A stretch of 64,000 bases of DNA from Callorhinchus milii (taxonomy: Eukaryota): contig NW_024704752.1 in NCBI RefSeq assembly GCF_018977255.1, positions 9,734,001 to 9,798,000 of the forward strand, in the 5' to 3' direction. Of this stretch, positions 12,701-61,052 are shown in pieces; position 1 is the stretch's first letter; each line of letters starts with the position of its first letter. The notes under the pieces were generated by a model. That model had not been told where the DNA came from, searched no databases, and saw only the letters and a program-made list of their open reading frames with translations. The translations under genes were made by a program, and so were the position numbers.

Positions 12701-15700
12701 CATGTGAGTATTGTTTCCAGTCTTTCTGAGCTCTCTGTATGAGAGGCTGGTCTATATTTTTTCTGGTCAGCTGGATATCTGACACATGCAAAAACCCATC
12801 ACCATGATTAAGCGTATCCAAAACAAACTGAGAATTCCATGCATTTCACCTACACATGGAGATTCTATAGAGATAGATTGTTGGAACGGACTGCGTACTC
12901 TCTCCCTAGAGGGACGTATCATGCTTACCTAATTCTGGAAAGTAATAGGTGCAGGTTGCCAAGAGCTAAGGCTTGGAGACCCCCAAAGTGTGTGTTGGGG
13001 TACTGCTGGAGTCTAGCTAGCTAGAATTACATAGCTCGTCATTGATATTGCTATCTGGTCTATGCTGCAAACTCTTTTTGTAATGAAGCAGAGCCCAGGC
13101 TCCGGACTTCCTGTGCAGGAGCATGTCACGTACTCTGAGTTTCCTCTGTGCAAACTGTCTTAGCCAATCCTTGCTATGCTGTTGTTCCATATGGTCTTGT
13201 GCTCTTTGTTGCAGTTCTTTCAGCAATACATGTCATTGTTTCTGTTGCAGGGGTGGTTCGATACTCGGCTCTCCTGGAAGACATTGGACTACGGTGGAGT
13301 CTCAATCCTTCGTCTTCCTCCCAGCATGGTGTGGCTGCCAGACATTGTCTTAGAAAACAAGTATGAATAGTTATTGCATTAAAATGGATATGAGAGTGGG
13401 CTGAGAGCTGATGGAATTTACAGTGAAGATTTACCTCTTTGATGCCACTGATCAGCATTCCCACACAGACCCAGGATAAATGTACTGTGTAAAGTTCAGC
13501 TGGTGGAGGTTCAAAGACTGATCAATCACTCATTTCTTTGAGCTAACCATTTGCACAGAGTAGACAAGAGTGTCTCACTATGGGCCACAAATCCCCTGGG
13601 ATATAGGCATGGGGCGGGTGGGGGGGAATCCAGTGATATGATTATTATCACCAGTAATAGTTATGAAATGGCATGATGTTTTCTCCACAGTTTGACATAT
13701 CACCTATTAGACAAACTGTATGATGGGGGTGCAGGGTAAAATGTAAACCTGAGTGTTAGAATTGAACCTGAAGTTAGGTCTGGACACACTAGAATATAAG
13801 GTGAGAGATTAGCCAGAAGTACATTTTAAGAAACATTTATGTGTTTTTATACCTTTGAACACAGTGCAGACTATTAACTTGCTGTATGTATCCACTGGGA
13901 ATCTCATCAACTCTGCACTTTATTCCCCAGTGTTGATGGCCAGTACGAAGTGGCGTATTATTGCAACGTGCTGGTTTCTTCAGATGGTTTCATCTATTGG
14001 CTCCCTCCTGCAATATTCCGGAGCTCCTGTCCGATCAATGTTGTGCATTTCCCATTTGACTGGCAAAATTGCTCCTTGAAGTTCACGTAAGTCTCCTCAC
14101 AATTATAGGGTTCCAGTTTATACGATAGTTTCCAGAAAAACTAATTAAATGGTACATTGTCATTTTGAAAAGTATCCATTGTCCTTGAGTCCCATCTGAA
14201 GCACTAAACCATTGTATTGAATATTCTTTAGAATAAAATGGAATCAAAGGTAGAATAAGTGGCGTTGCAGCTACAAGGAAGCTTGTTCCTGATTCAGTGT
14301 TTTCATGTTGAGTAGAGTGAAGCTCAGAGATATCACAAGCAGCCTGTTTCCCATTCATTCCATAACTACTCTCTAGAACCCACTTCCAAAGTGTATTGAC
14401 CTCTTGCCATCTCTCAGAATTTCCATTAAAAATGTATCTCTTTGAATCTTGGTTGAGAACTCTCAAATGTCTTCACGTTCATAGGAGAACATCTGAAAAA
14501 GTATCTGGGATGAGGTTAATGATAACATTGGATGTAAATAACACGAGTATTTATTTTACTGCATGATCTGCTGATCTGTGCCATAATAATTTCCTTGGTA
14601 GTGTGTGCTGAGTAGTAAACACCAGTCTACGGGTAATAATCTTTGTCTGTAAAGTTACTGTTAAATGATTGCATTATATACCTGCCTTTATCTCTATTGC
14701 TGGTAGATGTCTGATGCATTCATGTAATTTGGACTGAGACCTCTGATATGGACAGGGTTCTGGGCATTTTACTGGCAATGACAGTGTGATGATATGGGTG
14801 TAACAGATTTTTATTTCTGTTTGAAGCTCGTTCAATTACAATGCCAATGAAATACATCTGGAGCTCAAAACAGAAATGAAGGATGGCAAGACATACCCAA
14901 TTGAGTGGATAATCATTGATCCCGAGGCTTTCACAGGTAATGATTCTGGGTTCCTGCTCCTGATCACTATCCAAGTAACTGCTCCTGTGACTATCCAGGT
15001 TACTGTGTAGGTATATGTGGACACCAGGGAAAGTGCAGTATTGGTCTTGGCTGTAATGCCCCCCACTTACATAGTTTACCAGCATTTACTGCCTAAACTT
15101 GCAGAGGAAGGACAGCCACTGACTGCAGGGGTGTTGTGTCTGGGAATAAAAAGCCTCCAGTGATTGAATTGAGAATGTTGTATGATTTTAATGAATCACA
15201 GCCTGATAGATCAAAATACCTTTTCCCATATTTTGGGTTGTTCTTACGAACTTCAGGCGAGGAGGGTAAAACTGGACCAACTGTTCAGCCATGCAGGAGT
15301 GTTGCTCAGTCATGTATTGTATTGCTAACGTGGACTGTTCTGTCTTTGCACAGAGAACGGTGAGTGGGAAATTGTACATCATCCTGCAAAAAAGAACATC
15401 CACGTAAACGTCTCTCCTAACAGCACCAAGTACCAGGATATCACCTTCTACCTGATCATCAAACGCAAGCCTCTGTTCTACCTCATCAATATCATCACCC
15501 CTTCTGTCCTCATCTCATTTCTGATGTTGCTGGCTTATTACCTCCCTGCAGACAGTGAGTGTCCATCCTGAGACCCTAATCTATAACAAGCACTTGCCAC
15601 ATGAGGTGCCCCAGTGCACCAGAGTCTAACACTTGATTGCTTCCCAGGCAGTAAGGATTGTGGCACATCAGTAAAATGGCTGAAGGTAGTGGTTGTATTA

Positions 15701-18700
15701 GGTCGACATTCTGTGTGTTAGTCCTTGAATTCTGAGTGTTGATAGATCTTGACAGATAGTGAAGACGTTCAGGGTTGTTCTGGTGGAAGGAACTAAGGAT
15801 GGATCTGTTTAGGGAATTCAGGGAAGATTTGTCATCAAACCAGCAATGATTTAGGAAAATTCCAGAGCAAGGAGTTGTCAGAACATTTTGCTTTAATGTT
15901 TGGTCCCTGGAATTGTAGAGACATGAGCTAATAGAAACCAATCCAATACTGAACATAAGATTGGATGAGGTGATGCACAGAAGCCTTATCCAGATGTAAA
16001 ATAGAAACTTTGAAATACTGGCCGCTGAGATCACCTTAAAACTAGAAAGTTTTACCTGTGTTCTAAAAGAGGTCACTAGTTCCGTGATAAGCAATTGAAC
16101 TTTGGTTCACACAGCGTTACTGCTCTGCCAGCATCATTGGATTGGTTTGATTGAAACACGAGAAAATTATTTTTGATACTTAAACGGAGTATCCAATGGA
16201 TAGAACCCTCCAGAGAGATGTCAGTGTAACTGTGTCCATTATTGTGATAATAACAATAATAATAACCCTTGCATTTGATATAGCACCTTATTGCATCATT
16301 GAGACGTTTCAAAGCGCTTCACAGGATATACTATAAAGTGTTCTGTGTGTTTTGTGGGCGAAATGCGGCAGCCAGTTGTGCACAGCAATGTCCCACAATT
16401 TTTTTTACTGTAAAGTGTAATGACTGTGTGTTTTGTAGAAGAACACAGCAGCCGGTTTAATCAATGTAGGAAGTGGGTGCTTCAGAAAAGGTTATGTTTT
16501 GCGGGCAGGAACCTGATTGTACACTGAGAAATTACACATCATAAACTGAGTGACTCGGATCTCAGTGCTGGCAAGGCCTGTGAGCTGTCTAATCTCTATT
16601 TGCTTTTTCAGGTGGTGAGAAGATGACGCTGTCCATTAATGTCTTACTCGCACAGTCTGTCTTCCTGCTGCTGATGTCACAAAGATTACCAGAGACCGCT
16701 GACGCTGTTCCGCTGATTACCAAGTGAGTGACTCCACACTAATTATGGGACATTCCATTCCCGGCTCTTCACTGCATTTCTGTGTACTAGTGTACACAGG
16801 CTGTGGATGTGCTGTACATGTGTTGTATTCAGCCTGTACACAGTGGACGTGCCAGGAATCTGTTGTGTGTGAGTGGGTTTGCAAGCAGTGTGTTGTGTGT
16901 GAATGGTGTGCAAGGAGAGTGCTCTGAGTAACTACTGCCTTTTTGTTTTCTCCTAGGTACTTAATATTTATTATGGTCCTCGTCACTTTTGTAATCGTAA
17001 ACTGTGTTGTGGTATTAAACATTCATTTCCGTACTCCCAGCACCCACGTCCTCTCAGCCTGGACTAAACGGGTAAGTAACGCAGCACTGGTCATATCATT
17101 CACAGCCCTGAGAATATCTACATGGAGAAGCAGAAAGAACCCAAGAGATGAACATGTTCTTTGTGTCTTCCTTGCCATGCTTAGCACACTGAACCAGTTC
17201 ACATAGTGAATCTAAATTAAGCTTCCAAGGTCTCAACAGGCAAATGCACTCTGCAATGTGGTTCTGAGCCATTCAGATTCAGAAGGTACCAAGTTTGATC
17301 TCTGTCTGGGTTTGTGTTGAGTGCCTGATTTTAGCCTGGGTTGACATTTTCACTGCTACAGTTGGGTTCAAAGTCCTTGCTCTGGGGTGAAGAGGTCAAC
17401 AATAGTAATGATTTATTGGTTCAGCAGTTTAAATGTTCAGAGTGTTATTGAGATTATTTGTACAGTGTGTTTGCACATTATACACATAACCTGAAGTGCG
17501 CTGTGATAACTGAGATAAATTCGGAAACATGGGGTGAAGCCCAACTTCAGAAAATTTAACTCAAATAGTCAAGGCTGACACTTGAATGCAGTGCTGGAGG
17601 TATGCTGTATTGTCACTGGAACTATCCTTCAGATAACACATTAAACCAAAGTCCCGTCTGCCTGTTCAGGTGAACATTAAAGATTCCATAATAATAATAA
17701 TAATAATCCTTGCATTTGATATAGCGCTTTTCACGTCGGGAGGACGTCCCAAAGCGCTTCACAGAGTACACTGTAAAGTGAATTGACTGTATATTTGTGG
17801 GCAAACGCGGCAGCCAATTGCGCACAGCAATGTCCCACAAACAGTCGTAGATTGAAAATGACCAATTTATTATTGTTTTTGGTTTTGGAGGGATTATTAT
17901 TAGGCTCTGTGTGGAGTAAGGAAACTTGCCCAAGGTTTCGCCCTCTGCCTGGAATTGAACTCAGGTCTCTCACTTGCAAAGCGAGTGCTCTAACCACTGA
18001 GCCACAGGACTCCATGGCAGTATTCGAAGAGAAAGTGTCCTGGTATCCTGGCTAATAATTTCCCCCAAAATAAAAATTGTTCACTCACTTCATGACTATT
18101 TGCGGGACATTGTTGTGTGCAAATTCGCTGCCACGAACACCTACAAAATATACATAAAATTTACATAAATCCTGTGAAGTGCTTTGAGGCAAACTCTTGA
18201 CATGAAAGACCCTGTAGTCAAATGCATGGACTATTGTGATGGCTGTTCTGTGTCCCAATTGTTCTGTTAATGTTGGTGCACTATAGCTGATTGTTTTTCC
18301 AGCTGTTTTTAGAAACTCTGCCACGGATCCTGCACATGTCACAACCAGAGGAGGAGGAGCTGTGGGTGAACGGGGCCATTCAGCGACGCAGCAGCTCAGT
18401 TGGATACATTGCCAAAGCCGAGGAATATTTCACCATCAAATCCAGGAGCGAACTGATGTTTGAGAAGCAGTCACAACGGCACGGGATGAAGGCGAGAACC
18501 ACCCCCAAAGCACGTGAGTGGACCAACGAGCAAAACCCAAAAAAAATTCCAATGTGGGTGGTTATTGCTCAGAACTGTAAAGATTCGACAATAATTGAAG
18601 CTGGGCTCATCTTAAAAAAAAAAAGAAGATTTTTTTTGTGTCAGCTGGGTGTCTGGCAAATGTGGAAACCCATCACCGTGCTTAAGCGTATCCAAACTAA

Positions 18701-19822
18701 GCTGAGAATTCCGTGAATCCCACCTACACATGGAGATTCCAGAGACAGACTGTTGGAATGCAATGTGCACTCTCTCCCTGGAGGGCTACATCTTGCTTAA
18801 CTAGTTCCGGAAAATATAAGGTGCATAAGAACACAAAAATTGGTAGATGAAAAAAAGACCAAGGTCCATCTAGTTCACCTTCCACCTTCCTGGTGGTCAC
18901 ATGCACATATGTCCCGAACTACTTATGTACTATATCCCATAATGTTATTCCCTAAAAGAAAATGAATCTGTGTTTGAAGCAATCAACATTTCCTGCTTCA
19001 ATCGTCCTCCCTCGGGAGCCTGTTTCACAGTTTACTGTTCGCTCACTGAAGGTTGGCAGGAGCTAAGATGTGGGGACCCCAGAGTACGTGTTGGGGTACT
19101 GCTGGAGTCTAACTAACTAAAAACTGATAGCTTGTCATTGATATCGCCGTCTGGCAAGATTTCCATGGCAATTTGGAGAAAAGAAATGGTACCTTCAATA
19201 ACAAAGATCTAAACCTTTTTTTTCAATGCAGCTACTGCTAACAGTGGCGAGAAGCAGCACGAGATTTCAGACCAGTTTTACTCCGAGATCAAGCCTGGTA
19301 TCGATGCGGCAAATTACATTGTGAAGCACACAAAGGACACAAACGATTATGATGAGGTGAGTAAGAGCTCTCGCAGCAACACACCACCTTCTCCACGTGA
19401 CCACGTTTCTGACTGTTCTGATGCTCTCTACGTACTTCTCTCTGCTGAAGCACAGTCTCCCGCACTATGCAGGGTTATCAGTCTTCTGTCCTCAAAAATA
19501 AGAGCATACCATTCATTGTATGCTTATTAGAAATGTATTTGTCTCTCTCCTTCCAGTGTATCTCCTTTTGCTGTGATTCTTACTCTCCTTCCACTGAACA
19601 TTGGGCTCAATCACATGTTTCTTTCTGTCTCAGGAGAAGGATAGCTGGAATCGTGTGGCCCGGACTGTGGACAGACTCTGTCTCTTCCTGATAACTCCAA
19701 TCATAATCATCGGAACAATCTCTATCTTCTTGATGGGCAAACTCAATCACCCCCCAGCGTTACCGTTTGAAAATGATGGTTTTGATTATGCACCAGGGCA
19801 TCCAAGATACTTAATAAAATAA
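9725..19822 (+). CDS. CHRND: Nicotinic acetylcholine receptor delta subunit (complete, 12 exons)
   Basis: Exons 9725-9776, 12145-12290, 12659-12703, 13251-13360, 13931-14086, 14827-14936, 15354-15554, 16612-16723, 16957-17071, 18303-18513, 19232-19356, 19634-19822 (TAA). Signal peptide [13 protein letters not shown], Cys-loop [36 protein letters not shown], and the delta-specific [28 protein letters not shown]. Confidence 0.97.
10464..10655 (-). mobile_element. Diverged SINE 3' fragment
   Basis: taataatccttacatttgatatagtgcc...gcagccaattgcacatagcagtgtcccacaaac; similar fragments at ~11975-12078 (+), 16250-16400 (-), 20770-20900 (+) and 50570-50765 (+). Confidence 0.75.
12764..13060. repeat. 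Unclassified ~300-bp interspersed repeat
   Basis: ggtcagctgg...aacccatcaccatg...cacctacacatggagattc...ttggggtactgctggagtcta...; homologous copies at 18638-19157 (split), 47780-48065 (opposite orientation) and 56572-56863, with fragments at ~4718-4775 and ~61095-61135. Confidence 0.8.
17688..18012 (-). mobile_element. Full-length young tRNA/Deu SINE nested in an older SINE
   Basis: tRNA-like head on the minus strand (ggagtcctgtggctcagtggttagagcactcgctttgcaagtgagagacctgagttcaattcc), Deu-like core and (TTA)n tail. The flanks ...aaagattccat / atggcagtattcgaagag rejoin an older SINE like the one at 21405-21690. Confidence 0.9.
18638..19157. repeat. Unclassified ~300-bp repeat split by a CR1-like 3' fragment (~18826-19049)
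   Basis: Homology to 12764-13060 breaks at ...ggtgca|taagaacac... and resumes at aggttggcaggagctaag. Confidence 0.7.
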
Positions 19823-21404
19823 GAGAATTCAGGGATGAGAAAAGGCCATTCAGTCCCAAAGCTTATCCTTCCTGTATATTAGCTGTCCTATTATCATATT
19901 CTATTTTGAATAAACCCTAATGTGTTTGTTCCACAACTTGCTTGGTAGATTACCCCAAACTTTGAGAAAACATGTTTTTTTCTGTTATTCACTACATATG
20001 TGTGCACACATTCTGATACAGACTTACACACGCACACATTCACTTTCAGACAAACAGAAACCTAGAGACACATGAAACACATATATCTGTGCACATGATC
20101 GATCCAAATGTGAGATGCATAAAAAGGATCAGTATGATCTGTATGGTTGAGGCACGACAGAAATTGTTTTGAAACATCAGAGTATTTTTCTGAAATTTTG
20201 TACCTGGAGATTTGCTGTTACGGAATTCCTATGGAATTCAGCAATTTTCACATCTCTAATTTCACTGGACAGTAGATCGGAAGGGAAGTTTCTTTTTTAG
20301 TATAATCTGTGTTTTACAGTAAAACCTGTCACCAAATATAATTGATTTGTCACTGTATATAAGTGACTCATTGCTGGTCGATGCTGCTTATATGGAACAT
20401 CTGTGCTGAGCCCTGAAAGCTACAATGGATGTAAAGTGTATTTTTCTCTCTGGGGCAATGAATAGGACAAGGCAAGTGCAGTATTTATTGGGTATCTGAG
20501 TTGGGCAGTATGGAGCTGGAAGGATGTACCAATAAGCGAGTGGGGAGTCCCAAATTCACCCACCCCCACATCCAAATAGAAATCTAAATAATTTGAGTTG
20601 TTTGTGGAATGTCATATCAATAATTTTCAAATGCTTTTTTGGGCAAAGCTGTAGCCAGTCACAATTATTCTTGGAGAGAGGTTTAGGGAGTGATATCCTC
20701 ACATAGGCTGGCATTGGAGTCAAGATTCTCACTGCTATACGTCTTTAACCTATATATCACCTTCTGGTCAAATTGGCTGCCGCGATTTGCTCACCAAATA
20801 CACAATCAATCCACTTTACAATATATTCTGTGAAGTGCTTTGAGATGTCTCAACGATGTGATAAGATGCTATATCAAGTGCAAGGATTATTATTATTATT
20901 ATTCTCATCTAATAGCTGTCAGTTAGTGACCTGATGTGCCATTCTGCAGGAAACCCCTTCAAACAATATTTACACCTGAGACAGGTGTATTGTGCCTGGC
21001 CAGCTGAAGTCAGGCAGCTGTGTAATACTCGAATCTATTTTTCAGAGATTGCAACTGATGCGGCACCAGATAAACATCTTCTGGGTGTTCAAAGGGACAC
21101 AGATTCTTAAACCTTGTCTTCATTTGGAAGCTGGTATATCTTCTAAGAACTATGGAAATCTGGCTTCCAAATCAAGACTGAATTCAGGTACTTTCCACAA
21201 TTCTGCATGATCTTAAATTTTAAGGCAAAATGGTCTTGAATGTTAAGACTGGCCTAGTTTGTTTAAATTGCAGAAAATAGTTAGTTAATATTTAGGCTCA
21301 CCTTAACATGCTGGGCATTGGTGATTCACACAGAAATACGTGACCCAGGAGCTGTGAGACAGCAGCAATCGGTGGCTAGTAATCCCAGGGCACACAGACA
21401 TTTA

Positions 21405-21690: not shown

Positions 21691-22185
21691 CAATTATATT
21701 GAACGTGGGTGAACCTCTGGATATACTGAATCCTAAAGTTGGGAAGAGAAAGAAATTTATTTTGTGCTCACTTCTCGAGTTGGTATAACTCTTTAATGTA
21801 AGTTTATTTCTTGGAACAAGTTATTTGTGAATTCTAAGAATGTCACAAAACCCATTCTTTCAACGTCAGTCTGTGTTGACAAGTACTGTTAGCTGTGTGT
21901 ACACTTCCCTATTCTGCAGCCTTGTAAATACAAGTGTCCAGAGGCTATTGTTTCTCACTCCCAAATTTATTTTAATTTATTCCTGGTTCTCTTGTTTTCT
22001 CCTTGAAAGCTTGGTTAGGATTGCACAGGCTCTCCTGAGAGAGGAGAATCTTACGGCGCCTGAGTGAATCCTTTATTTAAAAACACAATGAGTAAGATCC
22101 GGTGGTTGGGATGGAAACTCCAGTAATCCGATCAAGAGTTTACGAACTTTATTTTTGTAAAAAAAAGTGTGGAGAGGCAGCAGAC

Positions 22186-25100
22186 ATGTCTGCAGTGACC
22201 ACACAGCCTACCCCCTTTGGGGTATTAAAGAGAGAAAAACACATTGAAAGTGTTTGGGGAGAATTTAAGGGTAGGAGAGGTGTAGAACCTGGTGAGCCAT
22301 TGAATACTATCCAGCTTTCTGCAACTGGAGGGACTGTGACTGAGCCCATTGGGATGTGCTTGGGAAGATCGAAAGAAGTTCTGGAGGAGATGGAATCAGA
22401 CGGAGATTCAGAGTTGAAAGAACAGAGTTCCAGGGCCCATCTGAAGGAGCTCGGGGGAAGACAATGGGCCGAAGCCTCATATCGACCTCTTCCCCTCTCA
22501 ACACACCCAGAGGCAGGCCAGCAATTACATGGACTGAGACCTCTCCAGCAGCTCCACCAGCTGTGCATCACTGCAAAGGCTGAGCTCCAAGGTGAGTACA
22601 TCCTGTTCTTACACCAGTGACTGTGTGAATTGCATGTATATGCCATTAACATCTCTTGTATAGTTGTAGGTTAGAAATTGTAAATTACGGAGGTCATCTT
22701 TAGATGACATAGACTTGGAGTGACTCTATTTTAGAAATCTCAGCTCTCACAGATTGGGGTCTAATATACTTGGTAGGAGGTCACTGTTTCGCAGTAAAAG
22801 GCAGGCCTTTACAACTAAGCTCTGGCAGGAATATTACTCCAGTTGATGGTAGGGGCTGGAGCCAAATGTTCAGAGAAAGCAACAAATTCACCTTCAGCTA
22901 CAGAGCACCAGTTTAACCTGCATTGAAGCAGAATATTGACAGGACTGAAGCATGTTCTTTCGTATCTCACTGTTTTGGTAAAAGATTCAGCAAGTCATTT
23001 TGCTGCTGGGCATGTTTTATTGCTTCAGGACTAGAAGTATAAAAGGCTGGATTAGAAAAGAGTGATCTCTGGGACCTGACTGCCCACACAGGGCAGTGTG
23101 ACTTTTATCTCCACAGCAACCATCACTTTAAGTCATTAGAACAAAAGAAACCCCCCGCAAAGATAGAAGTGGACTAAACTTTCACCATCTGAGACACAGA
23201 GCTGACTCGCAGCACTCACTGCTCTGCACAAATTCATTTTATTGTTTTGCAAGTTTGAAAGGGGAAAATTCCAATTGGTGTACAATAAAGGCTACTTTGC
23301 AGAAAGGAACAAGAGCTAATTGTTTAAATTTCGCCTCTTCTGCTTTTCATGTGATTTATGTGCCGAGCAAGGTGAAGGTTGTTAGTGCTATCATTCCATT
23401 TTGAGCACCAATGTCAGCCACTATGTGTTAGATACTGATGAAACCCACCTGCACTGTCACAGATCAAATTCAGCATGTGTTTAGACACACGTTTACATTA
23501 TCCCTTTAAAACTCCTGGTCGGGTGCAGGATGTGATAAAGACACAGAATAAACCTTTCTACTTGGTCTTTTTTTTTATTATCTTTCATCTCTATTGTAGG
23601 ACCAACTTGTGATCCTGCCAGATGCTACACCATCACAAACCAGACAGGACGACAATTGTACGTGGCTTCTGAAGGTAAACATTCCTCTCTCTGTCAGGTC
23701 AGGTCTTGTTGCCAAAGCCTGATACTATTAACCAGACCTAACCAGCAATAGGAACTTTCATATCAATTGGACTTTCCATTTCTTGATATTGACCACATTA
23801 CTTTCAATTAATAACAAATATGATCTCCCTCCAATGGCTCAGAGAGTAAATGTGTAGAGGGGCATTAAGTGATACTGATGAGGATTGGTTTTGCTTGCAT
23901 TGAGTTAACAATGGCAATAGAGACCCTAGTTCCTGGTCTAGGGAAGGGGATAAAGAGGTTCTGCTCCTGATCAGTATTCAGTGACTCTGCTATAAACTAT
24001 GGGCTAAGGACAGGATTAGGAACATCTGAATGTTCTCACTCTGGTACATTTGGGTGAGGTGCTGGGGAGCCTTGCAATACTTGTCGAATTGTATGCTACC
24101 AATGAGATGTGGAGGGAAAGGGAGAATGTTTTCTGGAAGGAAATATAATCCATTAATTAGGGGCTCATTGGCTCCTGCACTGATTCATTCCTGAACAGAA
24201 GATGTAGAAAGTCCCGATAGGTCCAAAAATATCTTAAACATAAATCTACTGAAATACTGTATCTCACTTGTGATCTTAAGACCCACCCCATATGAAGTAA
24301 CAGTCACAGTATGTAAGACTTTTATATCATAGGCATTTATGATAGGCTGGTTATAAACAAGTCCTGTCACACTTCAGTACATCATTTATAACTGTATTCT
24401 TTCTAATCAGAAAACCACAAGCATCATGAAATTTAATGTTTCTGTTATCAATCTGTAAAAGTGTTAAATGTCTCCTAGCATTGAAAATTTGAAAATAGAT
24501 TTTTAAAAAATGTTCATTTGCCTCCTGGCTGTTTGTGGGCTTGGATGTGCACACATTGGCTGCCTAGTTCATCTACAAAATACGCATTATAGTAAATCCT
24601 GTGACATGCTTTGAGATGTTTCAACATGATAAGGTGCTAGACCAAATATAAATATTATTATAGGATTTTTTTTTCTCTCTCAGATACCAGCTGCCTGTGC
24701 TTGAACCTGTGTGGTCCCGCTCGTTCCTGTTGTATTAAAATCTATAACCACCAATCAGAGGAAGTGCTACACTTCATCAGACCCTTCAGAGTTGATGCTT
24801 GTTGCTTTGGGTGCTGTCTAATGGAGATGAGTGTGTTCAACTCCAGGAAGGAATTAATTGGCTCAGTGAAACAAAGGTAAGTGCAGCCTGCTTAATACTT
24901 AACCATTTTAATCAATGCAATGATAACTCTTTATAGCAACAACAATCTAATGGCTTCAGTGCAATTACTTTGCAGCAGAAAGGCCTCAAATAAGTATGGT
25001 GCTGTATTTCTCCTAACTGGTTTAAATTGCTATATATTCAATAAGGTTATATATTATAGTAACATGAGCTTAGAAGAAACTCGTTCTGATCAGAACATTC

Positions 25101-27791
25101 AAAGACTCAAAGAAGTTTCAGCAGTTAGGAGATTCAATCTGTCTCGAGGAATCTGACATTAAATTAGGACTTAAATGGGTGCAACAGGGGTTTTACTATT
25201 AATGTTATTTCTTTGAATCTGGGTTCAAATTCAGCTGAGTGATAGTAGGAGGTCATGCCTGAAATTAACTTGGTGAGTGCAGATGCACCATGTGAAATTG
25301 CCCACAATGTCACAGAAAGTGCCAGGCTCACTCCGTTTAGTATTGCCCTTTGTGTCTCTGCAGGTGGAGCATGTTCACACCCCTCCTTGAGGTTTGTGAC
25401 CCAGAAGGATGTGGCATTATGAAAATTCATGGTGCTGTTGTCCCTGCAGATGTTCCGCAGATCAGGAATTCCAGGTAGAGTACGTGTACCTATTTCAACT
25501 AAGCAAAGGATAAGTAGACTGGGTGAGGTAGGTTCTGATGAAAAGAATAAGAATCATTCTACAGTCGGTCAAAAACTTGCATTCATATAGCTCTCTCCAC
25601 ACTGGGCGGCGATCCAGAGTGCTTAACAATGCTGGAGCCTGATGCCGAGCCAGGGGGAGAGGGAAGGTGATCATAGGCACGGTCGAAGAGGAAGGTCTTC
25701 AGGCGCAACCAGAGAGGGCAAGGCGAAGGGATTGAGTGAGGGGTTTATAACATAGTGATTTGGATTCATAAAATCAGATCCAGGTTAATAGTTTGCCTAA
25801 TGGAGTAGCCTCTGGCCAGAACTTCTTGATCAGCAGGTTGCTGTAGACATCTGTACTGTGTGCAGCAATCCCCTACTAGTGTACTTTTCCAGCAGTTATT
25901 GGGATGAGGAGAGGTCCTCTAAGCGCCAGAAAAAAACGATCATTCAATTCATTGATGTTTGTTGGACATTGTGGTGCACAAATTAGCTGCTGTATAACAC
26001 CTAGATAGTCACTACAATTTACAGAAAATCCTGTAATGTTTTAACATGATATAGTGCTATGTCAAATGAATTATTATAATTGACAGAGATCATGAATTTT
26101 TCTCTCACCTGCAATGATTTTTATTTATTATTACTGATATCGCAAGCTTACTCTTGCATTGTGTCGATCTGCAATAAGGTTGATTTGCTGTGTGTGTGCG
26201 CTCTCGCATGTATTGTGATCGCAATATATCACCATAATCCTACTACTTGTGTGTGCTCACCACTGAAGGTTACGTCCAGGATTGGCAATAGGTTGGGGCT
26301 GATCTGGAAACGATGGCGAGGTTTCAATGCGGAATTTAACATGGATCACGATCACTTTGGTGTGGACTGTAAGCATCTTTTATAAATCTATACCAAACCG
26401 CATATAACATTTGTTGTTTATGAATGTACTGCTCTATTTATGATCGTTGCCTCGAGACACTCAGCACATCTTAGAAAGGACAGGACCATTACATCACTGC
26501 GTGGAGATTTTCTTAAAATAAAAACCTTGAATATAAAATAAGACAAAAACGTAAAATCCACAAGAACTGTTACAGCTCAGCACGAACGTTCCTTAGCAAC
26601 CAAGGCAACAACACTGTACTGCAGCCTGGATACTGCAGGGACTGAGCCTTGCTCAGACTTGTTCGTAAGACAACCCTTTTACTGTTACAGTCATTAATCA
26701 GGGCATGAGGATACTTAGAGATGTAAAGGGAGGTCCTATTTATTCAGACGTTGACTGACTGGCTCCAGTACAAATATTCTGTTGGTTTTGTGGCTCACTG
26801 TTTTCTTGGTAAATCTTGGACAGGAGGATCCCAATTAAATCCAGAAGACAACCATTGAATTCCAGCCAGAAAATGGCCCTGAACTTGACCAAGCTTGCCA
26901 TCTGTCCATGTGTTGGCTTAGGCAATGCAGTCTTTTGAGTGAGCTACCCATAATTTCTAAAATTTATGCTGATATATTTACTTGCACTGAGGTATATTAC
27001 ACAGAAAGAATATACTGTATAATGATCCTTGCATCCCATCGGGGTTTAGGAGAGTTTGAGGCTAATGTGGATATAAACATCAGCATGGACTAGTTGTGGT
27101 CTATGGCCCATTTCTGTGCTGTAACACTGTATGTAATTTACTTCTCAACATGCTTTACTTCACAAGTGACTGTTGATTGTAGACAAGTGTGGTAGCAGTT
27201 TTGAGATGAATGACCAGTTTATCGGGAAAATTCTTGGTCAGGACACTGGCAGAAACTCTCTTCTCTCTCGGAATTATCATGGGATCTTTAGTAGGACCTC
27301 GGTTTAATTTCTCAGCTGACAATGCAGCACTTTCCAGCACTGAACTCAAGCGTCAGTCTAGACTGAGTTTAAGTCCCAATTAAACTCACAAGTTATTGAC
27401 CAAGAAGCAAGAATGTGACCAGCTGAGCCAGGCTAATAGATTTGCATGTTGTAGGATATACTAATATGGATATTAGTATGTGTTTTGTGTAGATTGTGTA
27501 AGCATTCTGAAATTTTTATGTTAAGGTTCATGTCATAACTGCAGGTGGCATTAAAAATGTCAGATATGTCTTCAAAACTTTTAAGCTCTGATTTTTGTTT
27601 TTTTTAAAAATGCAGTTCCAGCCAACATGAACCCTAATGCAAAGGTGCTGTTACTGAGTGCAGCCTTTTTACTGGTAAGTTGCAAATCTAGGCAAACTTT
27701 TCTACATGGTTTTCAGGGTTGTTTACTCAGTTAAGTGTGTAAGCATTTCTCTGATCTCTTACAGAACTACATGTTCTTCGAAATGAGCTGA
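22186..27791 (+). CDS. Phospholipid scramblase-like gene, 7 exons, with an apparent 1-nt frameshift in exon 4 (possible pseudogene or assembly error)
   Basis: Exons 22186-22591, 23600-23674, 24684-24876, 25364-25474, 26269-26368, 27616-27674, 27765-27791 (TGA). Translation: ...GLRPLQQLHQLCITAKAELQ|GPTCDPARCYTITNQTGRQLYVASE|DTSCLCLNLCGPARSCCIKIYNHQSEEVLHFIRPFRVDACCFGCCLMEMSVFNSRKELIGSVKQ|RWSMFTPLLEVCDPEGCGIMKIHG/(shift)CCPCRCSADQEFQ|VTSRIGNRLGLIWKRWRGFNAEFNMDHDHFGVD|FPANMNPNAKVLLLSAAFLL|NYMFFEMS*. This is collinear with the PLSCR scramblase domain. Confidence 0.9.
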
Positions 27792-28263: not shown

Positions 28264-28269
28264 AATAAA
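28264..28269 (+). terminator. Candidate polyA signal of the scramblase-like gene
   Basis: AATAAA about 470 nt after the TGA at 27791. Confidence 0.5.
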
Positions 28270-29453: not shown

Positions 29454-32400
29454 TCACAAGGTGAGTTTTGTATTTCTAAAGCTTGAATTATCTCTGTGAA
29501 AGAAACAGAATTATTCAGGAATACATTGTTATTCAATACACCACAAAATCAAACAATATTTCAATTAAATATAGCTAGATAAAATTCTCATTACAGTTGT
29601 AAATGTCATTCACAAAATACTTTCTCTTTTGACATTTCTGGGCTACCCATTTAACTAATATATAGAATCCCAGGAATTTGATTCATGGGTGTGTGAGTCT
29701 TGCCCCCTCCCCCGAGCTAGAACAAGTTGCCCTAGTAAATTCTTGTCTTTCCTTGACAGGAATTTATTTCACGTCTTGAAGACGTGATAAGGCACTATAT
29801 CAACTACAAGGATTATTATAATAGGACTTTTCCTTGAGCATTTATCCAATTTCTGGTTAAATAATATTGTTAAGAACTCCGCTTCTAAGTCATTTGTGGT
29901 AAGGCATTCCGCATTCTGACAACCACAATACTCACTAAGAATAATTCTAACCACGAAATTCCCTTTGAACTCAATTTAGTACTCACAATTTGATCGTAAT
30001 TTTTGCCAGCTCTTGGCGTACTCACTTGATACTGTCTGTATGAGTCTTGTACTCCATGATAGTATTGGGTGGTAGGTTCAGAACACGGCGCAATGTGTCC
30101 CGGATTCTTGCAGTAGTCGCTTGGTCACTGGCTGTTTTATTCCATATTGAGATGATATCCTCCTATGGTACAAACAGAAATTCGAATTCACTAACTGACG
30201 GTGCAGATACAATACTTTACCAAAATGAACAGCAACATTAAAATGGCAAAGTCAACAAAACATCGCTAAAATTTGGAATCTTTTTTCCTGCTGGGGCAAA
30301 AACGAAAGCTTCAGGCCAAAGGGTAAATTAAAAGTTTCTTTGCGACAAGAATGCGAGCCACAGCATCGGTACTGCAAAGAGGTCGGATTTTGTCATTTCC
30401 TTTTTGCAAAGGTGTCTTTTTTTTCCCTCCAATTGTATCTTCTGTCCATAAACACTTCAATTCTTCAACTTGGATCACTGATATAATGCAGTGCCTCTGA
30501 TAAGTTTCTTCTCTGTGATGGCATTTAATCTTTATTGTGCCATAACCAGAGTCCAAGTGACTGTCTTCTAAAGCAGAACAACAGCTTTTCTGAGTTCCAT
30601 ACAACAAAACAAACATTTCACATTTAACTCCCTTATTTTGTTACAAATATTTCAAATTAAAAACACAAATCTCTGGTTTCTAGATTTTCTTTAAATGTTG
30701 TAGGTACTGAAACAAAGTGCAAATCTCGACAGTACATCAGATTACAAATCATATTACCAATACCTTAAAATGTTACCTTCACCGAGGCATTTTATACTTC
30801 AGTGGAATTTGTGCTTTTAGTGACAATGTCTGAGTTTAACAGTAGCAAATGCTGTAAAATGACTCTTAAAATGACAAATCAGGCCTAATTTTTTTTAAAT
30901 CACAGATCAATTTAAATTAGTCTCAACTGTTCAGATAAAGAAAAGCTTATAACCATTAGAATCTGAATAACCTGGTCTTACATTACAAATAAAACATTTC
31001 TTAAATAGGATTTCATAGATCACAAGACATTTTCAGCAACCAAAAACCTTGCAGTATATATCTGCTGTGAACTTGGATTCTAGGTGTGAAACTCTGCACA
31101 ATTTATTTCTAGAAAGGTGGAATCTGCCCATTGTTAATCTTGTCCTGAATTATTCTGCTGAGAGCCAAACAAGCAAAGTACTTCCTCTTAAGTGCTGAAG
31201 CAAGCAACGTACCTGGAACCGAACTGAAACAACTGCCCCACAGACCTCTTCTCCCACCATGAACTGCTCCCCCAGCATTGCTAGAATTAGATTCTCCCAA
31301 CAGCGTGATGCCAGCCCCTTCCGCAGGCGAATAATCCACTTCCCACCATTCTTGTTTGCTTCATCCTGCAAAGAGTCCAGAAAAAACCCTCAAACCAAAG
31401 CCTGGTCTCATCTTCATCCACCTATTTTGACTTGAAAGCTGGTATATAAATGCAATTTGTTGTTGTGTGGCCACACAGCTAGGTAATACTGCCATTTTGT
31501 CCCATTCTTGAAGTAAACAAAAGGGTATTAGGATTTAACACTGAGTTTAAAAAATGTTTACATTGATGCCTTGATTTGCAATTATTTATTCTAAATTGGA
31601 GGACAGGGATTTTGACTGTCCTTGAGAATGGGAACGGCTGTCGTGTACCATACTCTATGAATAGCTGAACATTCAGACAGTGAAGATTCAAGTTACAGAA
31701 TGTTCCTGCCATTAGGGAGAGGAAGAGGTAAGATTTACAGTCTGCACCTGCTATCCCACTTCAGAGTCAAAGCATGGGCATTTCCGAATGGTAAAAATAG
31801 GGAGGAAATTGATGAAAGCAGCCGCAAGCTATTGACAGGCGGCCAGAGGTCAGAATGGACCCCCAGCCCTATCATAGGCCCTGTCAAACAGCCAGCAGGT
31901 GCAGCCATGTGACAAGTCTGCCATTAAGTAGTAGATTCAAAACAGCGCCTTCACACTGGATACATGAGAGATGGACTCGAAGGTAGCTGATGCTCATGGG
32001 ATTGTAGCCTTGCCTGGGATAACGAGAGGAGGAAATCAAAAAAAGAACAAAAACATATGGAAAGAATTCAGAGGCAGCATTGCAGCAATCTTCATCAAAA
32101 CAAACATATTGTACTGTAGCAGCCCAAGATTTACTATCCTCCTCCCAGTTAGCTTTTTTTAATATAAATAGTGACCTCGGGAGCAGAGTTATTACTTTCC
32201 ATTGTTTTGAGGTGTACCGTAAGCGGCTGTGACAATGCCACTGTCTGTCTATTCCAATCTCTCTACATAAGCATTAAAATAAATACAACCACACAAACAC
32301 AAAATGGCTAAAATAAAGTTAAACTATGAAAACTCCTAAAATCTACCTCACCATCTTAGGCTTGTGCTTCTTCACAGCCAAACACAGTCATCAAATCACT

Positions 32401-35400
32401 ATGTGCAACTGCACAATGCACATCAATCCGAGGGATTCCTTCCATTTCTATTGCGCTTTAAATCAATGGAAATACTTCTGTCAAAATAAAGTCCCATGCC
32501 TTTAAATAACGAATGGACTCAATTGCATAATAGGCAAGAAACAAATACCAGTATGACATTTTAGCTGATATTTTAGCTGCTGTTTTTGTTTAAACTTTCC
32601 TTTCTTAAAATAAATGACTTCTGTCCATCCAAACCAAACATGTTTTGTTGAGGATATCAATAACAAAGTAACATATCAATTCACTCACCTACTTTACAAA
32701 AGACTCTGCACAATGTTTTTTTCATTATGTCAAGCAAGTGCCAGATGATGAAAAACAGAATCAAGAGTATCTCATGCACTTCACAAAACATAAACATATC
32801 TAAACAGGAAGCTGTTTGGCGGTTTAACACAGCTGAGTATTTATTTAAATTTAAATAAACCAGATGAACAGTGATTTCTCAAACTGTTCGTGTAACTATC
32901 TACTGTAATTAGCAGGTACAACTTAGATTAGGGATAATTTAATAAGCCAACAGGATGGTCATTGTCTCACTCATTGAGAGGGGTAAAGGTTTAAAAGCTA
33001 ATGGGTTGATACATGTCACTTAAAATGTAAACATGCATGCAATTGGTATCATTCTCTAATCATTAATCTTATTCCTAACAAATCTGCTTCTTGCGAAGTG
33101 GTTTCTATTCAAGGCTGAGTTTCTATTCACTGTACTTTTCACTGTAGAGAAATGAAAAAGAAGCGAACAAAATATAGTAATACTAAAGTGAATAATTATT
33201 ATGCATGGGCAAGAAAACATGCAAAATCAAGTCTTGAAAAGAGACATTCAGGATTTATGTGTTGTTTCTGTAGCTCAGTGGTTAGAGCACTCGCTTTGCA
33301 AGTGAGAGACCTGAGTTCAATTCCAGGCAGGGGGAAACCTTGGGCAAGTTTCCTTACTCCACACAGAGCCTAATAATAATCCCTCCAAAACCCAAAACAA
33401 TAATAAATTGGTCATTTTCAATCTACGACTGTTTGTGGGACATTGCTGTGCGCAATTAGCTGCTGCGTTCGCCCACAAATATACAGTCAATTCACTTTAC
33501 AGTGTGTTCTGTGAAGCGCTTTGGGACGTCATCCCGACGTGAAAAGCGCTATATCAAATGCAAGGATTATTATTATTGTTTTGGACTCATTTCCTTGTGT
33601 CTGATTCCCTTATGAATCTAAATTGGCCCAAGATGCAAACCTGGAGCTGAGTCTGGGTAAATTTGGAGGATTTGGAGTGTATCAAACAGACGTTGGACTG
33701 TCCACAATTAAATGTAAACCTTTTGTAAAATGAATGCGCAAAAGATGTGATCCTGAAATAAAGAGAATGTTACTTGAATAGCAGGGCCACACAGGAAAAC
33801 TCTAGGCAAGACTATATATTTGTTCAGTTCTCCCCTCCAAACATAGCAACTCACCTCCCACATTGGTTTGATGCCATCCTTGAAAAGATGAAAATCACTG
33901 TGGCCAGTCAAGTCGCCAGGTCGAACTAAGTGACTATAAAACCTCCAGAATTGTTCAACCTGAAAATAAATCAAACATTGATGGTGAAATTCACATACAG
34001 GTGATTTTCAGATATTTAACTATTTGCTATTTCAGGTTGCTATTACAACTTACAAAAACATTTACAACTTTAACCAACCCATGCTTTTGTTCTCATTTTT
34101 AAAAAAATGCACTTAAACTATGGTGTCCTTTGCGGTTTAATGGTGTTTATTTTGTGCTTATTGTGCACACTAATCTTTTGCCAGGTAGTATTTTAACTAA
34201 GGCACAATATTCACTGGTAGGTAGCACCACAGAAATATACCAACACATCACTGCATGGTATACAATTCCACGACTGTCATTCTACATTGTAAGTTTCTGG
34301 TCAGAGTGATCTGGGAGATCTAGCCTTGGCCCTAGGATCACAAACAATGATTTGATTATCGGCAGAAATTATTGAAAGGGCGATGGGAGGTAGTTCAAAT
34401 AATAAAAGATTGACAATTTCTGTGTAAAAAGGTTAAAAACACAATGATGAAATCAAGTGCACTTAGAATCACTTTGGAGGATCTTAGAAGCTATCTAAGC
34501 AGAGGTTACTCATTTAACAGTTTGACTGTTGATTTAGCCTTTTAAGGCTGTGTTTTCTGCACCATGGCTTTACTAGCATCAAGCACCAAACCTGAAAAGT
34601 TGTTCTCTGAGATGCAAGTCTTTACTAATTAGAAACATAGCAGAATGGTTCGAAAGGACACACTGAAAATGTGCTACTTACAATATGTATTTATTACGAC
34701 AACTTGACCTCAGGAAAACTAAAAGGACACACAGACATTCTGTAATACTCTGCTAGACTCTTAAGTCAGGAGACAAGCTGTACTCCTATTAAATACAAGA
34801 CTATGTCTAAACCATTTTTTAAAAAAACTTTTAATATATTTTGGCATCTCTATTGCATAATGACATCCACACTATTAATAGGACTAGAGTGAGATGAACA
34901 AACTGTTTATTGTTTCGTAGTTAATCGCAGATGACCCCAACAACCCAAGATAATCCTGGGAGAAATATCATCACTGTGAAGATAAATTCCTTACAGATGC
35001 ATATTCAATTCTCTTTTAAGTTTAATTCAAATCAAGTTGTGCAGAGCACTGTATATGTTGCAATGACGCCCCACAGTGGCTTGCAAAGTCATTGTAACTC
35101 AACTTGCAAAGTATAAAGCTTTTTCTGATTAGTATAAGCAGAAATAATTCTATAAGTATTCTCTCCCTTTTTGAAAAATTGTCATTATTCTTACAAACGT
35201 TTACAAAGAACAGCAAGGAAACAGACCAATTGGCCGAACCAGCCCATGCCAGTGTTTATACTCCACATGAAATATGGAGTATATCATCACTGTGAAGATA
35301 AATTCCTTACAGATACATATTCAATTCTTTTTTAAGTTTAATTCAAATCAAGTTGTGCAGGGCACTGTATATGTTGCAATGACGCCCCACAGTGGCTTCG

Positions 35401-38400
35401 CTCCTTACTCCCTCCAAGTCACATCCGTTCACATATCCCTTATGTGAAAGTCTAACTTCTCCTCCTTCTTGACAGCCATTCACCTGCATGGTCTCCATTA
35501 AATAAAGAATGTGATTAACAAAGCTGCAGATATCTCCACCACTGCTGGCACTATTCTTGTCACCATTGTGGAAGTACAAGAGGTTCTGCAGTGGTTAAGG
35601 TTCAGAACCAATCGATGATAGTAACAATTAGCACTGTAAAGCTCACGTCAAACCTTTCAGGCAGCCCTGTGATTCTAGCTCTTCTAATCTTTGTGAAAAA
35701 TTCTACTGCTCATTCAGTGAGAATTCGGTTATTAAACTCATAAGCTAAAGTTTTAAACACATTTTGCCTGAAGTATTTTGCCTTTGAAAACAGTAAACAT
35801 TGTTGACTAAAAATCTCCTGGGACAATCTGGCATTTTGTGAGTTAACTCGTGCCTCAAATATCTACGTTACAAAATGTCAGGTTTATACAAAAGATCTGC
35901 TGTTTACACTGTAGCTTTAAGCAAATAACTTTGCTGTGTGCAAATTGGTTGTCATCTTAGCCTACAAATACACAGTCATGACACTTGACTGCAATTACCT
36001 GGGAAGCACATATAAAATGCAAGGATTATTATTATAAAGGCTTACAGAGGCAAAGGTTCCAATCTGTTTAACATTCTGTTCATAACTCTGCGAACTGGTG
36101 GGGCGGCCTGGAGTCCGCCTGGAGTACCAAAATGTGTAGTTGTACTGGAACGGGTGTTCTCCTGGGCCAGGGACCACAGCCTGTATAAAATAGAAACAGT
36201 CCACTGAATTTATATTGAACATAATAAGAGGAATAGGCCATTCAGCCTATCAAGGCTGTTCTGCCAGTTATTAGATCACGGCAGATCTTTTAATCCAATT
36301 TCCCCGACTTAACCACGTTAAAGAACAGCAGATTATATAATTAGACTGAAGTGCAGTTTCAAGTTAACAAGCCTTGAGATTTTCCTATCAGTATAATTGA
36401 CATGTTTAACTCCCAGCTAAAGATTTGTTAGATAAGGGTTTTAGAAGAACTACTGGGGTGATGGAACACCCCAGTAGTTTCACAAGTGTTTCACAATGAA
36501 CACAGGGTAAAGGATTGCACTGACATTCTGAAATCTGTTGATTTACCTTTGGTGCAGACAAAAGATAGTAGAAACTTTTCTCAGGATATCAAATGGGTTG
36601 CAGACTGTCTGGGGAAGAAACAGCCTAGATAGGGCAAATGGTCTTCTCCTACCATACTTCATCTTTGCCTTTTAGCCTCTTAAAGTAAAAATATAGAAAT
36701 GCAGCAAACACACCTCTAGTGACATTGTATTTTAAAAGACAACACATATAATGGGTGTACAAGATTTAGAAAATAATGAATGTGAATGGTTTGCCTCTAT
36801 TGATTAGTAGATGAATGGAGTCAAGACATTTCCGTGATACCTGTTCTGAATTTAGTTTTCATTTGTTTCTATGGCCTCTACTCCCATGCCCAATGTAATA
36901 ATCTGGTTTTACCTTACCTACGTCAATAAATAATTTCATACACAAGAGGATACCCCTTAACCTGCAATTATTCCTTTCATCTCTGATGTGGAAGTAAAGT
37001 CTACCTGCAATGTCAGCAATATTTTCTTTTAAATTGCACGCAATGTTACTGCATGCAATTGCTTTGCATAAGCAATGATTCTTCCTGAACGGTTCAAGGT
37101 GGAGATCTGATCCAGACAAGTAAATAACTAGTGAGAGAGCGAGGGAAAGACCTGCACAAACATGCATACACAGATAGAAAGAGAGGGAGAGGTATACATA
37201 CTGTTTTAATATTCACAATGCAACTGATCCCAATTATTGCGAACATCAGGCTCTCTACTTCAGATTCCCTCTTCTTAACTGCTATCCTTCCAGTCTGCTC
37301 CCCTTTTTGGTTCGGTAACACTTCATTTAATTTAGTTTCTCTTTTTATTGTACTGTGCCTGCTTTATCATGCAATAAACAACCCCTATTAATGATTCAGA
37401 ACTCATCTCACCTTCCTTTTGATGCTATTCTGGCTCTTCTCTTTGTCTGATTTTTCCTTCTCACTCTCTTTCTGTGTGTGGTTATCTTCATTCTGATCTT
37501 GGTCTCCACTATCATCATCTTTCAATCTACAATTCAGGAGACTAATTGGTAAGTGTCGACACTGAGATAGAAATCACTGGATAAAATAACACTGTAAGAA
37601 ATTCCTTTTGAATTTTTTTAAAAATGCAGAATTTTCAGTAAAAATAACAACAATCAATCGGTAACACACCTCCTTTTTAGTGGCATATCAGGCACACAAA
37701 GCTGCAGCCAGACAGCAGTTATAAATCACAGGATACTGTCAACAGTAAGGAGTATTTGTCAAATAAAATCCATTCTTTGTATGTCAACATAGTCACAAAA
37801 TACATTCACTCCACTTTATTGTAAATCCTATATATATTGTACTGAAGCACTTTGAAGCATTCTCCTGCCATGAAAGGAGCTATATCAAATGTAAGGATTA
37901 AATATTTTATGCATTTTATGCAAATATTGTGTTTAGAAGTTGTTGCGAAGGCATTTTAAAGGAGTAAACGCAATATCGTTAAAGCATTTTTTCCTGCAAT
38001 TACCCCCAAGATTGAACATGGTGCAAACGAGAAGACTGCAACTCACTGAAATATTTGATATTGTAACAATGAGAAACGGGAGGCTATTGATGTTATAGTA
38101 AACAACAGTTTGTGTCATAGCTAACACCAATTCATGAATTTGCATAAAGTGAAAAATTGATTTGAATGAACAAGAAAATACTGGCCCAAATTTTCGTAAA
38201 GGTTATTCTTTGAGAGAAGGCCATTCAGCCTTTGAAGCTCATCGTTTCTCAAGTGCAGTATATTGACTGCTGCGTCCGGGAAAATAAGAAAAAAACCACT
38301 TATAAACTATTAGGGAATAGGAGCTCCTCAAAGTACTTCACTTCACATTGATGTTACTTTATTACAAACTGCGGCTGGAAAAAAAGCCAAACCTTTTACA

Positions 38401-39172
38401 AACATTTACCACGGCACAAAGGCAATGATAAACAAAGAGAACATGACGGTGGGCTGAACAGTCAAATCAGTTGAATTTAATTCCCCAGAAGTTGTAATCA
38501 CACGGCACAGTGTTTACGTCAGTCCCACATCCGGATGAGATCCCCCAGTCCCACCCCCCAAAAACATACAGTCAATCCACTTTACAGTACATTCGTGCGA
38601 AGCGCTTTTGCGACGTCTCAACGACGTGATCGGGCGCTACACCAAACGCGCGGACGACGACGACGGCGGCGGCGGTGGCGGCGATTACTATTATATCCGC
38701 ACCCCAAGTGCCTGACGATCGTCGTCTCGCCCCCAAAAAACGTACCGCCAATTCACTTTGGGGCGTAACCCCTGAAAGCGCTTCGAGAACGTCTCGAAGA
38801 CGTGATGAGGCGCTGCACCAACTGCGAGGATTACTATATATTTATCAGTAGTGTATATATATATATATATGTATATGTGTAGATATAAAACATCCTACAC
38901 CCCGAGTCCCAATGTACCCCAACAGCCCCCCCTCACACCTGGATTGCCCCCTCCTACCCCCAGCCCCGGGCTCTGACAGGCTCTCGCTGGGCCGGGACCG
39001 GGACGGTTTATTTGCGATTCTTCTGCCAGAAGCGACCGACCGACCGCCCGACGGAGGGAGGGAGGGACCTGCCCCCCCAGGACAGAGCCGAGGGGAGGAG
39101 CGCGGCCCCTGTGGGGCCCAAACCCCCACAGCGGCCCCCGGGAGGGACTCACGCGTCGAACTTGTTGTTCAT
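29454..39172 (-). CDS. EIF4E2: Eukaryotic translation initiation factor 4E type 2 (4EHP)
   Basis: Exons 39172-39153 (MNNKFDA), 37526-37412, 36180-36046 (AVVPGPGEHPFQYNYTFWYSRR), 33959-33855 (VEQFWRFYSHLVRPGDL), 31365-31213 (GGKWIIRLRKGLASRCWENLILAMLGEQF), 30162-30026, 29493-29454 (DNSSFRNTKLTL*); all phase-consistent. Confidence 0.97.
33268..33577 (+). mobile_element. Full-length tRNA/Deu SINE
   Basis: A-box tagctcagtgg, B-box gagttcaattcc, Deu-like core and (TTA)n tail. Confidence 0.9.
34965..35398. repeat. 118-bp direct duplication in an EIF4E2 intron
   Basis: 34965-35082 and 35281-35398 (atatcatcactgtgaagataaattcc...gacgccccacagtggctt) differ at only a few positions. Confidence 0.9.
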
Positions 39173-50800: not shown

Positions 50801-50964
50801 AAAAATTCAAGTTCTTTCTCGTCAAAGAAGCTGCTCACCTGTGGTCTCAACCATGAAGTTTTGCCACAGACTTTGGCAATGGGTGTAGAATAGGTGGAAA
50901 AAAGAGAAGAGTCAGCAGCAGGGAAGTCATCATCATCAAACAAGATCTTCTTTGGGGTTTCCAT
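44881..50964 (-). CDS. CAPN10: Calpain-10 (terminal exon not resolved)
   Basis: Exons 50964-50839 ([27 protein letters not shown]), 50174-50043 ([14 protein letters not shown]), 49751-49555, 48573-48356, 48234-48093, 47585-47419, 47248-46962, 46452-46250, 45980-45728, 45482-45280, 44926-44881 ([16 protein letters not shown]). Protease core followed by two C2-like domains and no EF-hand. Confidence 0.93.
47780..48065. repeat. Unclassified ~300-bp repeat, opposite orientation
   Basis: Reverse complement of the 12764-13060 family; ends gacacctagctgaccaaaacaaa. Confidence 0.78.

Positions 50965-60929: not shown

Positions 60930-61052
<123 letters not shown>

Follow-up and report, generated by a model that had tools for sequence, protein, structure and literature searches.

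The phospholipid scramblase (PLSCR) family counts five members in human (PMC12003403), and the zebrafish paper PMC7353957 treats only plscr1.1, plscr1.2 and plscr2 in its accessible text. What these proteins do is debated, with weak scramblase, antiviral fusion blocker and adaptor all under discussion. PLSCR1 needs its five cysteines for membrane targeting, is a weak scramblase with a barrel too short for the bilayer, and can block membrane fusion in a way that does not depend on this weak activity (PMC10371867). PLSCR3 exosomal secretion and sorting depend on palmitoylation (PMC3590573), and PMC2639001 describes the scramblase helix as buried and palmitoylation as the probable anchor. The subject of this analysis is a scramblase gene of Callorhinchus milii that lies at 22186..27791 on the plus strand of a 64,000-nucleotide (nt) stretch of contig NW_024704752.1 (assembly GCF_018977255.1), called the window here, in which all coordinates are given. 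Its best overall explanation, with a probability of about two in three, is that it belongs to an ancient second scramblase subfamily whose products would be acylated membrane barrels serving as adaptors.

The gene is real and intact, and it is already present in RefSeq and UniProt. Exon 3 matches the C. milii entry A0A4W3HXP0 at 100%, and RefSeq holds the same protein as XP_007901083.1, 'phospholipid scramblase 2-like isoform X1' (P0001 below); the first-pass annotation, made from the letters of the window, had called the gene hidden, a word that fits the open reading frame track and nothing else. P0001 matches the Pfam Scramblase profile PF03803 with 141.2 bits (E 3.9e-41, profile positions 15-220 of 221) against a curated cut-off of 25.4 bits, and exon 3 by itself scores 35 bits. 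The domain holds 18 cysteines. The stretch ahead of it has 112 residues with 7% proline, in line with the earlier description of a non-proline-rich N-terminus of about 110 residues; canonical scramblases (76 rows) have a median of 14% in this region, with a wide spread and a short rabbit PLSCR5 isoform at 9%. The motifs quoted in the first-pass annotation are all present in the sequence.

Relatives of the gene are spread widely across animals. Among the 120 listed of 200 profile matches are chimaera, sharks, coelacanth, ray-finned fish and amphibians, under the names scramblase 1, 2, 3 or 5 in no pattern. A search weighted towards reptiles returned 20 matches, from six turtles, six lizards, one alligator, two amphibians and five teleosts. 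A full hidden Markov model scan gave 2290 matches, of which the best 150 were taken and names looked up for 20. The named invertebrate members of the branch include proteins of amphioxus, a crinoid, a sea urchin, a tunicate, two annelids and a clam.

The trees set these proteins apart from the known family. In the main tree (IQ-TREE, LG+C20, 48 rows by 230 columns, unrooted), 13 vertebrate orthologs form one clade with support of 100/99, within which the order follows the species tree. Together with nine invertebrate-type rows, seven of them named, they make up 22 rows that split from 26 canonical rows at 100/99. The canonical side holds rabbit PLSCR5, koala PLSCR3, a sloth PLSCR2-like protein, unnamed PLSCR1-like rows and insect scramblases, and a quick tree of 84 rows gives the same picture. 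Approximately unbiased (AU) tests reject two alternatives: a single clade of these proteins and PLSCR5 (p 0.000129; PLSCR5 being represented by a named rabbit row and two unnamed look-alikes), and one that unites every vertebrate scramblase (p 0.000182; the named rows being PLSCR2-like, PLSCR3 and PLSCR5). Because 17 invertebrate-type rows of the residue counts had been picked partly by motif, a recount took the 150 library rows with no selection by hand and left the motif columns out. The clade recurs there, with 31 of 145 rows and a FastTree support of 0.97, after removal of the 12 of 157 rows that were less than 75% filled. Over the domain, the gene is 79% identical to a shark ortholog, 44% to amphioxus, 36-37% to clam and annelid and 31% to rabbit PLSCR5.

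Protostomes and deuterostomes stand on both sides of the tree, so the duplication would predate their split wherever the root lies. These comparisons argue, with high confidence as far as identity and ancestry go, for an ancient second subfamily whose separation from the PLSCR1-5/insect subfamily came before that of protostomes from deuterostomes. The first-pass annotation had proposed a distinct paralog lineage outside the mammalian cluster, open to doubt if the protein nested within a known PLSCR ortholog group; the split and the AU tests bear the proposal out with respect to a PLSCR1/2/3/5-type clade, and the lineage is older than was implied because annelid and clam members group with it. 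The branch appears to have persisted in jawed vertebrates as far as reptiles; mammals probably lost it, and birds perhaps did too.

A small set of residues distinguishes the branch, given here in P0001 numbering, with the mapping to PLSCR1 taken from the motif letters of the first-pass annotation and the 273-284 range of PMC12003403. His314 occurs in 27 of 28 rows of the motif-free tree clade and in none of 113 others. Arg279 is found in all 31 clade rows against 7 of 109 others, Asn311 in 25 of 29 against 1 of 111, and a stop of the FEM[ST] type in 22 of 31 against 0 of 114. A larger count uses 151 vertebrate rows, which include isoforms and are mostly teleosts, hence not independent; 24 rows were left out of it (fragments, near-duplicates, the long-branch rows P0179 and P0230 and the canonical fragment P0249). 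There, His314 is present in 150 rows, and a C-terminus two residues past the conserved Glu in 133, compared with 0 of 119 canonical rows. The N-terminal motif Q-P-x-P-F-x-x-L-x-R-E-K-H is carried by 136 of the 151, and its core also by the tunicate row. At columns 225-230, the counterpart of the palmitoylation motif, P0001 has four cysteines, and Cys is found in 139-148 of the vertebrate rows.

The predicted fold is that of a membrane-associated barrel. AlphaFold2 predicts an N-terminal arm that is disordered, followed by 12 strands and a single helix, with a predicted local distance difference test score (pLDDT) above 80 in most 10-residue blocks of 141-348, and models the shark ortholog alike. 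In a model from an alignment of the branch alone, the N-terminal motif reaches a pLDDT of only about 63. The best structural match is At5g01750 (Z 12.5, root mean square deviation 2.9, 146 aligned), followed by Tubby (Z 12.3, deviation 3.0, 154 aligned), and the next best has a Z of 8.4. Such Tubby-like matches are as expected from PMC2639001. Matches in the ESM Atlas are scramblase clusters only, and a sequence search of solved structures from the ortholog alignment returned nothing significant (best E 1.8).

These features suggest how the protein may act. Behind the disordered arm, 12 strands would close into a barrel around a buried C-terminal helix. By analogy with PLSCR1 and PLSCR3, the Cys clusters would be S-palmitoylated and tether the barrel to plasma or endosomal membranes on their cytosolic side. 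The barrel would not span the bilayer; it would work as a membrane adaptor or modulate the fusion and trafficking of vesicles, and scramble lipids weakly at most. Its membrane-facing end would carry a subfamily-specific site, since by the predicted topology the Cys loops, Asp223, Arg279, the Asn311-His314 stretch and the end of the helix should all lie at one barrel end, and the N-terminal motif would offer a second interaction site. This mechanism of an acylated, peripheral, Tubby-like barrel is favoured here with less assurance than the ancestry.

Several points weigh against this combined explanation. The functional steps are all borrowed from paralogs that are 31-36% identical, and no experiment on a member of the branch was found. 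The shared surface at the barrel end is an argument from strand order, and a Foldseek search gave no match at E <= 0.001, the best being At5g01750 at 1.6e-3. Turtle, lizard and alligator members have lost several loop cysteines. The trees were built without an outgroup and without a row named PLSCR1 or PLSCR4. Finally, the proposed losses lean on weak negatives: no bird, snake or mammal among the 20 matches of the reptile-weighted search, for which 8000 candidates were scored, and no bird or mammal among the 120 listed of 200 profile matches.

The reptile members (P0300-P0311, P0138, P0141) have longer branches and lack several loop cysteines; most keep N-x-D-H-[ED], and the terminal FE[MV]S is kept. 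Their sequences may reflect relaxed selection ahead of the loss of the gene in other amniotes.

A more specific version of the adaptor explanation makes the sealed barrel end a dedicated ligand site without a counterpart in PLSCR1-5, formed by the invariant His, Arg and Asp together with the free C-terminal carboxylate. A lipid head group, an inositol phosphate or Zn would be candidate ligands. We regard this site as tentative. If true, it would mean a distinct conserved function and a handle on what PLSCR barrels bind. Equally tentative is the wider picture that includes it, in which bilaterians would have two ancient scramblase subfamilies, one of them studied, and the second, bearing the ligand site, would run from annelids and clams to alligators and be lost in mammals.

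Among the competing explanations of function, a metal-regulated variant survives best, though it is improbable. Here the conserved His, with nearby Cys and acidic residues, would bind a transition metal such as Zn rather than Ca. His314 is near-invariant within the branch and absent outside it, Asp313 is present in 151 of 151 vertebrate rows and Asp or Glu at 315 in 150, and the Cys-rich loops fall at the same barrel end by topology. The first-pass annotation had pointed to two histidines in the Ca-binding-like motif and to altered metal binding; both are in this protein, yet only the first is conserved, as His316 appears in 17 of 151 vertebrate rows and in none of the 17 invertebrate-type ones. 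Moreover, the motif of PLSCR1 partly coincides with a core strand and so cannot form an EF hand (PMC2639001), the equivalent cysteines are acylated in PLSCR1 and PLSCR3, and reptile members drop several of these cysteines yet keep the His.

Slightly less probable still is that the protein scrambles lipids in a Ca-dependent manner, as the textbook has it for PLSCR1. Membership of PF03803 speaks for it, as do the retained Asp-x-acidic-x-Phe part of the 273-284 'Ca-binding' motif and the weak activity of PLSCR1 in TMEM16F-null cells (PMC10371867). The meaning of that motif is itself disputed (PMC2639001). P0001 retains its first Asp, its second acidic residue and both Phe; it has His at position 2 and Asn in place of the last Asp. 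At that last position just 16 of 151 vertebrate rows have Asp. The counterpart of Phe281, which PLSCR1 needs, is likewise Phe in just 16 of the 151, though this protein is one that has it, and the predicted helix is buried, not transmembrane. The acylated adaptor barrel remains our preferred account of the function.

The location of the gene invites another explanation. The order in the window is a trypsin-like protease (+), CHRND (+), the scramblase gene (+), EIF4E2 (-), a calpain (-) and class C G-protein-coupled receptors (-). Exons of CHRND lie at 13164..19822 on the plus strand, the gene starting further upstream. EIF4E2 stands tail to tail with the scramblase gene at about 31150..39170 on the minus strand, an approximate span in which the 3' exons are unmapped. 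Human EIF4E2 runs in the same direction as CHRND, and one of the lineages would then have undergone a local inversion. The calpain (45716..51015, minus strand) combines a catalytic domain with two domain-III units, and its architecture and synteny make it CAPN10-like. The CHRND-EIF4E2 block is the expected one: CHRND-CHRNG-EIF4E2 adjoins CAPN10 in birds and occurs in human (PMC3786927), and mouse Chrnd, Chrng and Eif4e2 are consecutive with 2.3 kb between the last two (PMC3420870). The accessible part of the mouse gene table lists no scramblase between Chrnd and Eif4e2 (PMC3420870), which agrees with the earlier statement that the gene lacks a counterpart at the human locus.

One could suppose that the scramblase gene took the place of CHRNG, or that it shares its regulation with CHRND and has a role at the neuromuscular junction. 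It begins 2.4 kb past the CHRND stop on the same strand, no second receptor-subunit gene was found in the window by tblastn with seven CHRND exon peptides (the extra matches being the non-coding repeat tail of one open reading frame), and synaptic vesicles are defective in scramblase mutants of the fly (as cited in PMC2639001). The named insect proteins, however, fall in the other branch, and replacement is argued from adjacency alone. CHRNG had already been reported as not identified in C. milii in the accessible text of PMC6354393, and this may be loss or an assembly gap; in bony vertebrates the scramblase gene may simply adjoin CHRNG. Nothing beyond position supports a link to CHRNG, at whose usual place the first-pass annotation had put the gene, and we consider such a replacement or co-regulation very unlikely. 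A search with four scramblase queries found no second scramblase in the window.

The database names suggest a cartilaginous-fish ortholog of PLSCR5 or PLSCR2, most named matches being called 'phospholipid scramblase family member 5' or '2'. The same orthogroup is nevertheless named 1, 2, 3 or 5 depending on the species, and the gene is closer to amphioxus, clam and annelid proteins than to rabbit PLSCR5. With PLSCR5 orthology rejected by the AU test and the tree topologies given above, such an identity is highly improbable.

Seven exons with AG/GT at all exon ends combine into the scramblase domain, as first proposed. Exon 1 (22186..22591) carries a start ATG shared with orthologs, the conserved N-terminal motif, a variable linker and the first barrel strand. 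Exon 2 (23600..23674, 75 nt) has AG/GT flanks and spliced contigs, and its boundaries look conserved because coelacanth, bichir and turtle records lack exactly this segment. Exon 3 (24684..24876) encodes the first two Cys clusters, with the equivalent of PLSCR1's palmitoylation motif among them, and exon 4 (25364..25474) the third cluster with the branch-specific Arg279. Exon 5 (26269..26368) follows with the stretch equivalent to the nuclear localization signal and the N-x-D-H-[ED] motif of the near-invariant His314, exon 6 (27616..27674) with the core helix, in agreement with P0001, and the coding part of exon 7 (27765..27791) with the FEMS-stop, all on the plus strand. The summed length of 971 nt is 1 nt short of frame. 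A read-through of the exon 4 break yields 323 residues, which equal residues 26-348 of P0001 at 322 of 323 positions, the sole mismatch falling at the break.

Sequencing runs repair this break. Four of 24 listed runs were examined (X1, X5, X8 and X10, from four studies); none of the 24 is recorded as RNA, and X5, X8 and X10 are guessed to be RNA, with support from contigs in them that run from one exon to the next. All four examined runs insert a C behind 25434, which restores the open frame, so the exon 4 frameshift (25434..25435, plus strand) is an assembly error, just where the first-pass annotation had asked for one added nucleotide. The splice support it sought is available for four of the six exon joints: exons 1, 2 and 3 are joined in X8 record 20, and exons 3, 4 and 5 in X8 record 21 and X10 record 11. 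Among the contigs listed, none covers the joints of exons 5-6 and 6-7; an X8 contig that starts 6 nt before exon 7, with one mismatch, reads as the end of exon 6 would, a weak hint. X5 record 15 is spliced in its earlier part and then runs into intron 5 (26369-27060), possibly as an unspliced or retained intron. A frameshifted pseudogene, as the exon 4 frameshift and the stops after it in the window would have it, has a negligible chance, since the missing base is found in all four runs, spliced contigs cross the break and the domain is so close to that of the shark ortholog; the run evidence rules it out.

Other features frame the coding exons. The RefSeq model starts at an in-frame upstream ATG (22111..22113, plus strand) that adds 25 residues; the rows of other species in the alignment begin at the 22186 Met instead. 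RefSeq isoform X2 (P0011) uses an alternative first exon at 21058..21187 on the plus strand, spliced to 22331, which removes the conserved N-terminal motif, and no spliced contig among those listed supports this exon. A likely poly(A) signal, AATAAA, lies at 28264..28269 on the plus strand; the contigs of the three presumed RNA runs end at 28280-28289, a weak hint, and the DNA-like run extends to 28510. Decayed copies of an abundant short interspersed repeat lie at 20800-20900, 21500-21690, 24530-24660, 25940-26080 and 28500-28700, and one copy stops about 20 nt ahead of the exon 3 acceptor.

At the edges of the window, at least two class C receptor genes of the vomeronasal type 2-like kind occupy 55205-64000 on the minus strand. 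Trypsin-domain exons at 1188-2381 are followed by coding-looking exons on the plus strand up to about 7347, five of which were tested and gave no Pfam match; these are probably a long C-terminal extension of the protease, which we take to be PRSS56.

The gene model is thus known, and the subfamily is apparently undescribed and unnamed in the literature searched. No paper on the branch was found there, although trees in supplements, subscription papers, Ensembl or PANTHER may show it, and the accessible text of PMC7948452 adds nothing on it. If the branch holds, more than 100 fish, amphibian and reptile records named PLSCR5 or PLSCR2 have no orthology to the human genes, and a transcriptome study that lends human function to them would be misled. 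A sister subfamily with differing conserved residues at the presumed membrane face also supplies specific positions to mutate, and its single vertebrate lineage a knockout target in fish or frogs. This is a useful evolutionary correction and not a new kind of system.

A comparison with the known systems places the gene among them. With vertebrate PLSCR1-5 the branch shares the full scramblase domain, three Cys clusters, the K-x-W-x-G of the nuclear localization region, the D-x-[DE]-x-F motif and the buried C-terminal helix. It differs from them in a domain identity of 31-36%, in having His314, Arg279, Asn311 and Trp300 as its own, and in carrying a conserved N-terminal motif where they have a proline-rich arm. 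The Tubby-like/LURP1 superfamily (At5g01750, PDB 1zxu/2q4m; Tubby, PDB 1i7e) shares the predicted fold at only 9-16% identity, and Tubby binds phosphoinositides and does not depend on acylation (PMC2639001). RefSeq proteins called 'phospholipid scramblase family member 5(-like)' or '2-like' in fish, amphibians and reptiles include this gene (XP_007901083.1) and its orthologs (XP_067850821.1, XP_064418256.1); these labels are automatic and inconsistent, and true PLSCR5 sits elsewhere in the tree. The amphioxus, tunicate, echinoderm, annelid and clam proteins called 'scramblase 1/2/3-like' (CAH1245351.1, XP_039251113, XP_033117892.1, CAH1781338.1, ELU07337.1, XP_045201851.2) belong to the same branch. 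They share with the vertebrate orthologs CGP-x-R, an R-C that follows the third Cys cluster, H-[ED] and a terminus of the FEM[ST] type, whereas most of them lack Trp300 and the L-x-R-E-K-H motif, which the tunicate row has.

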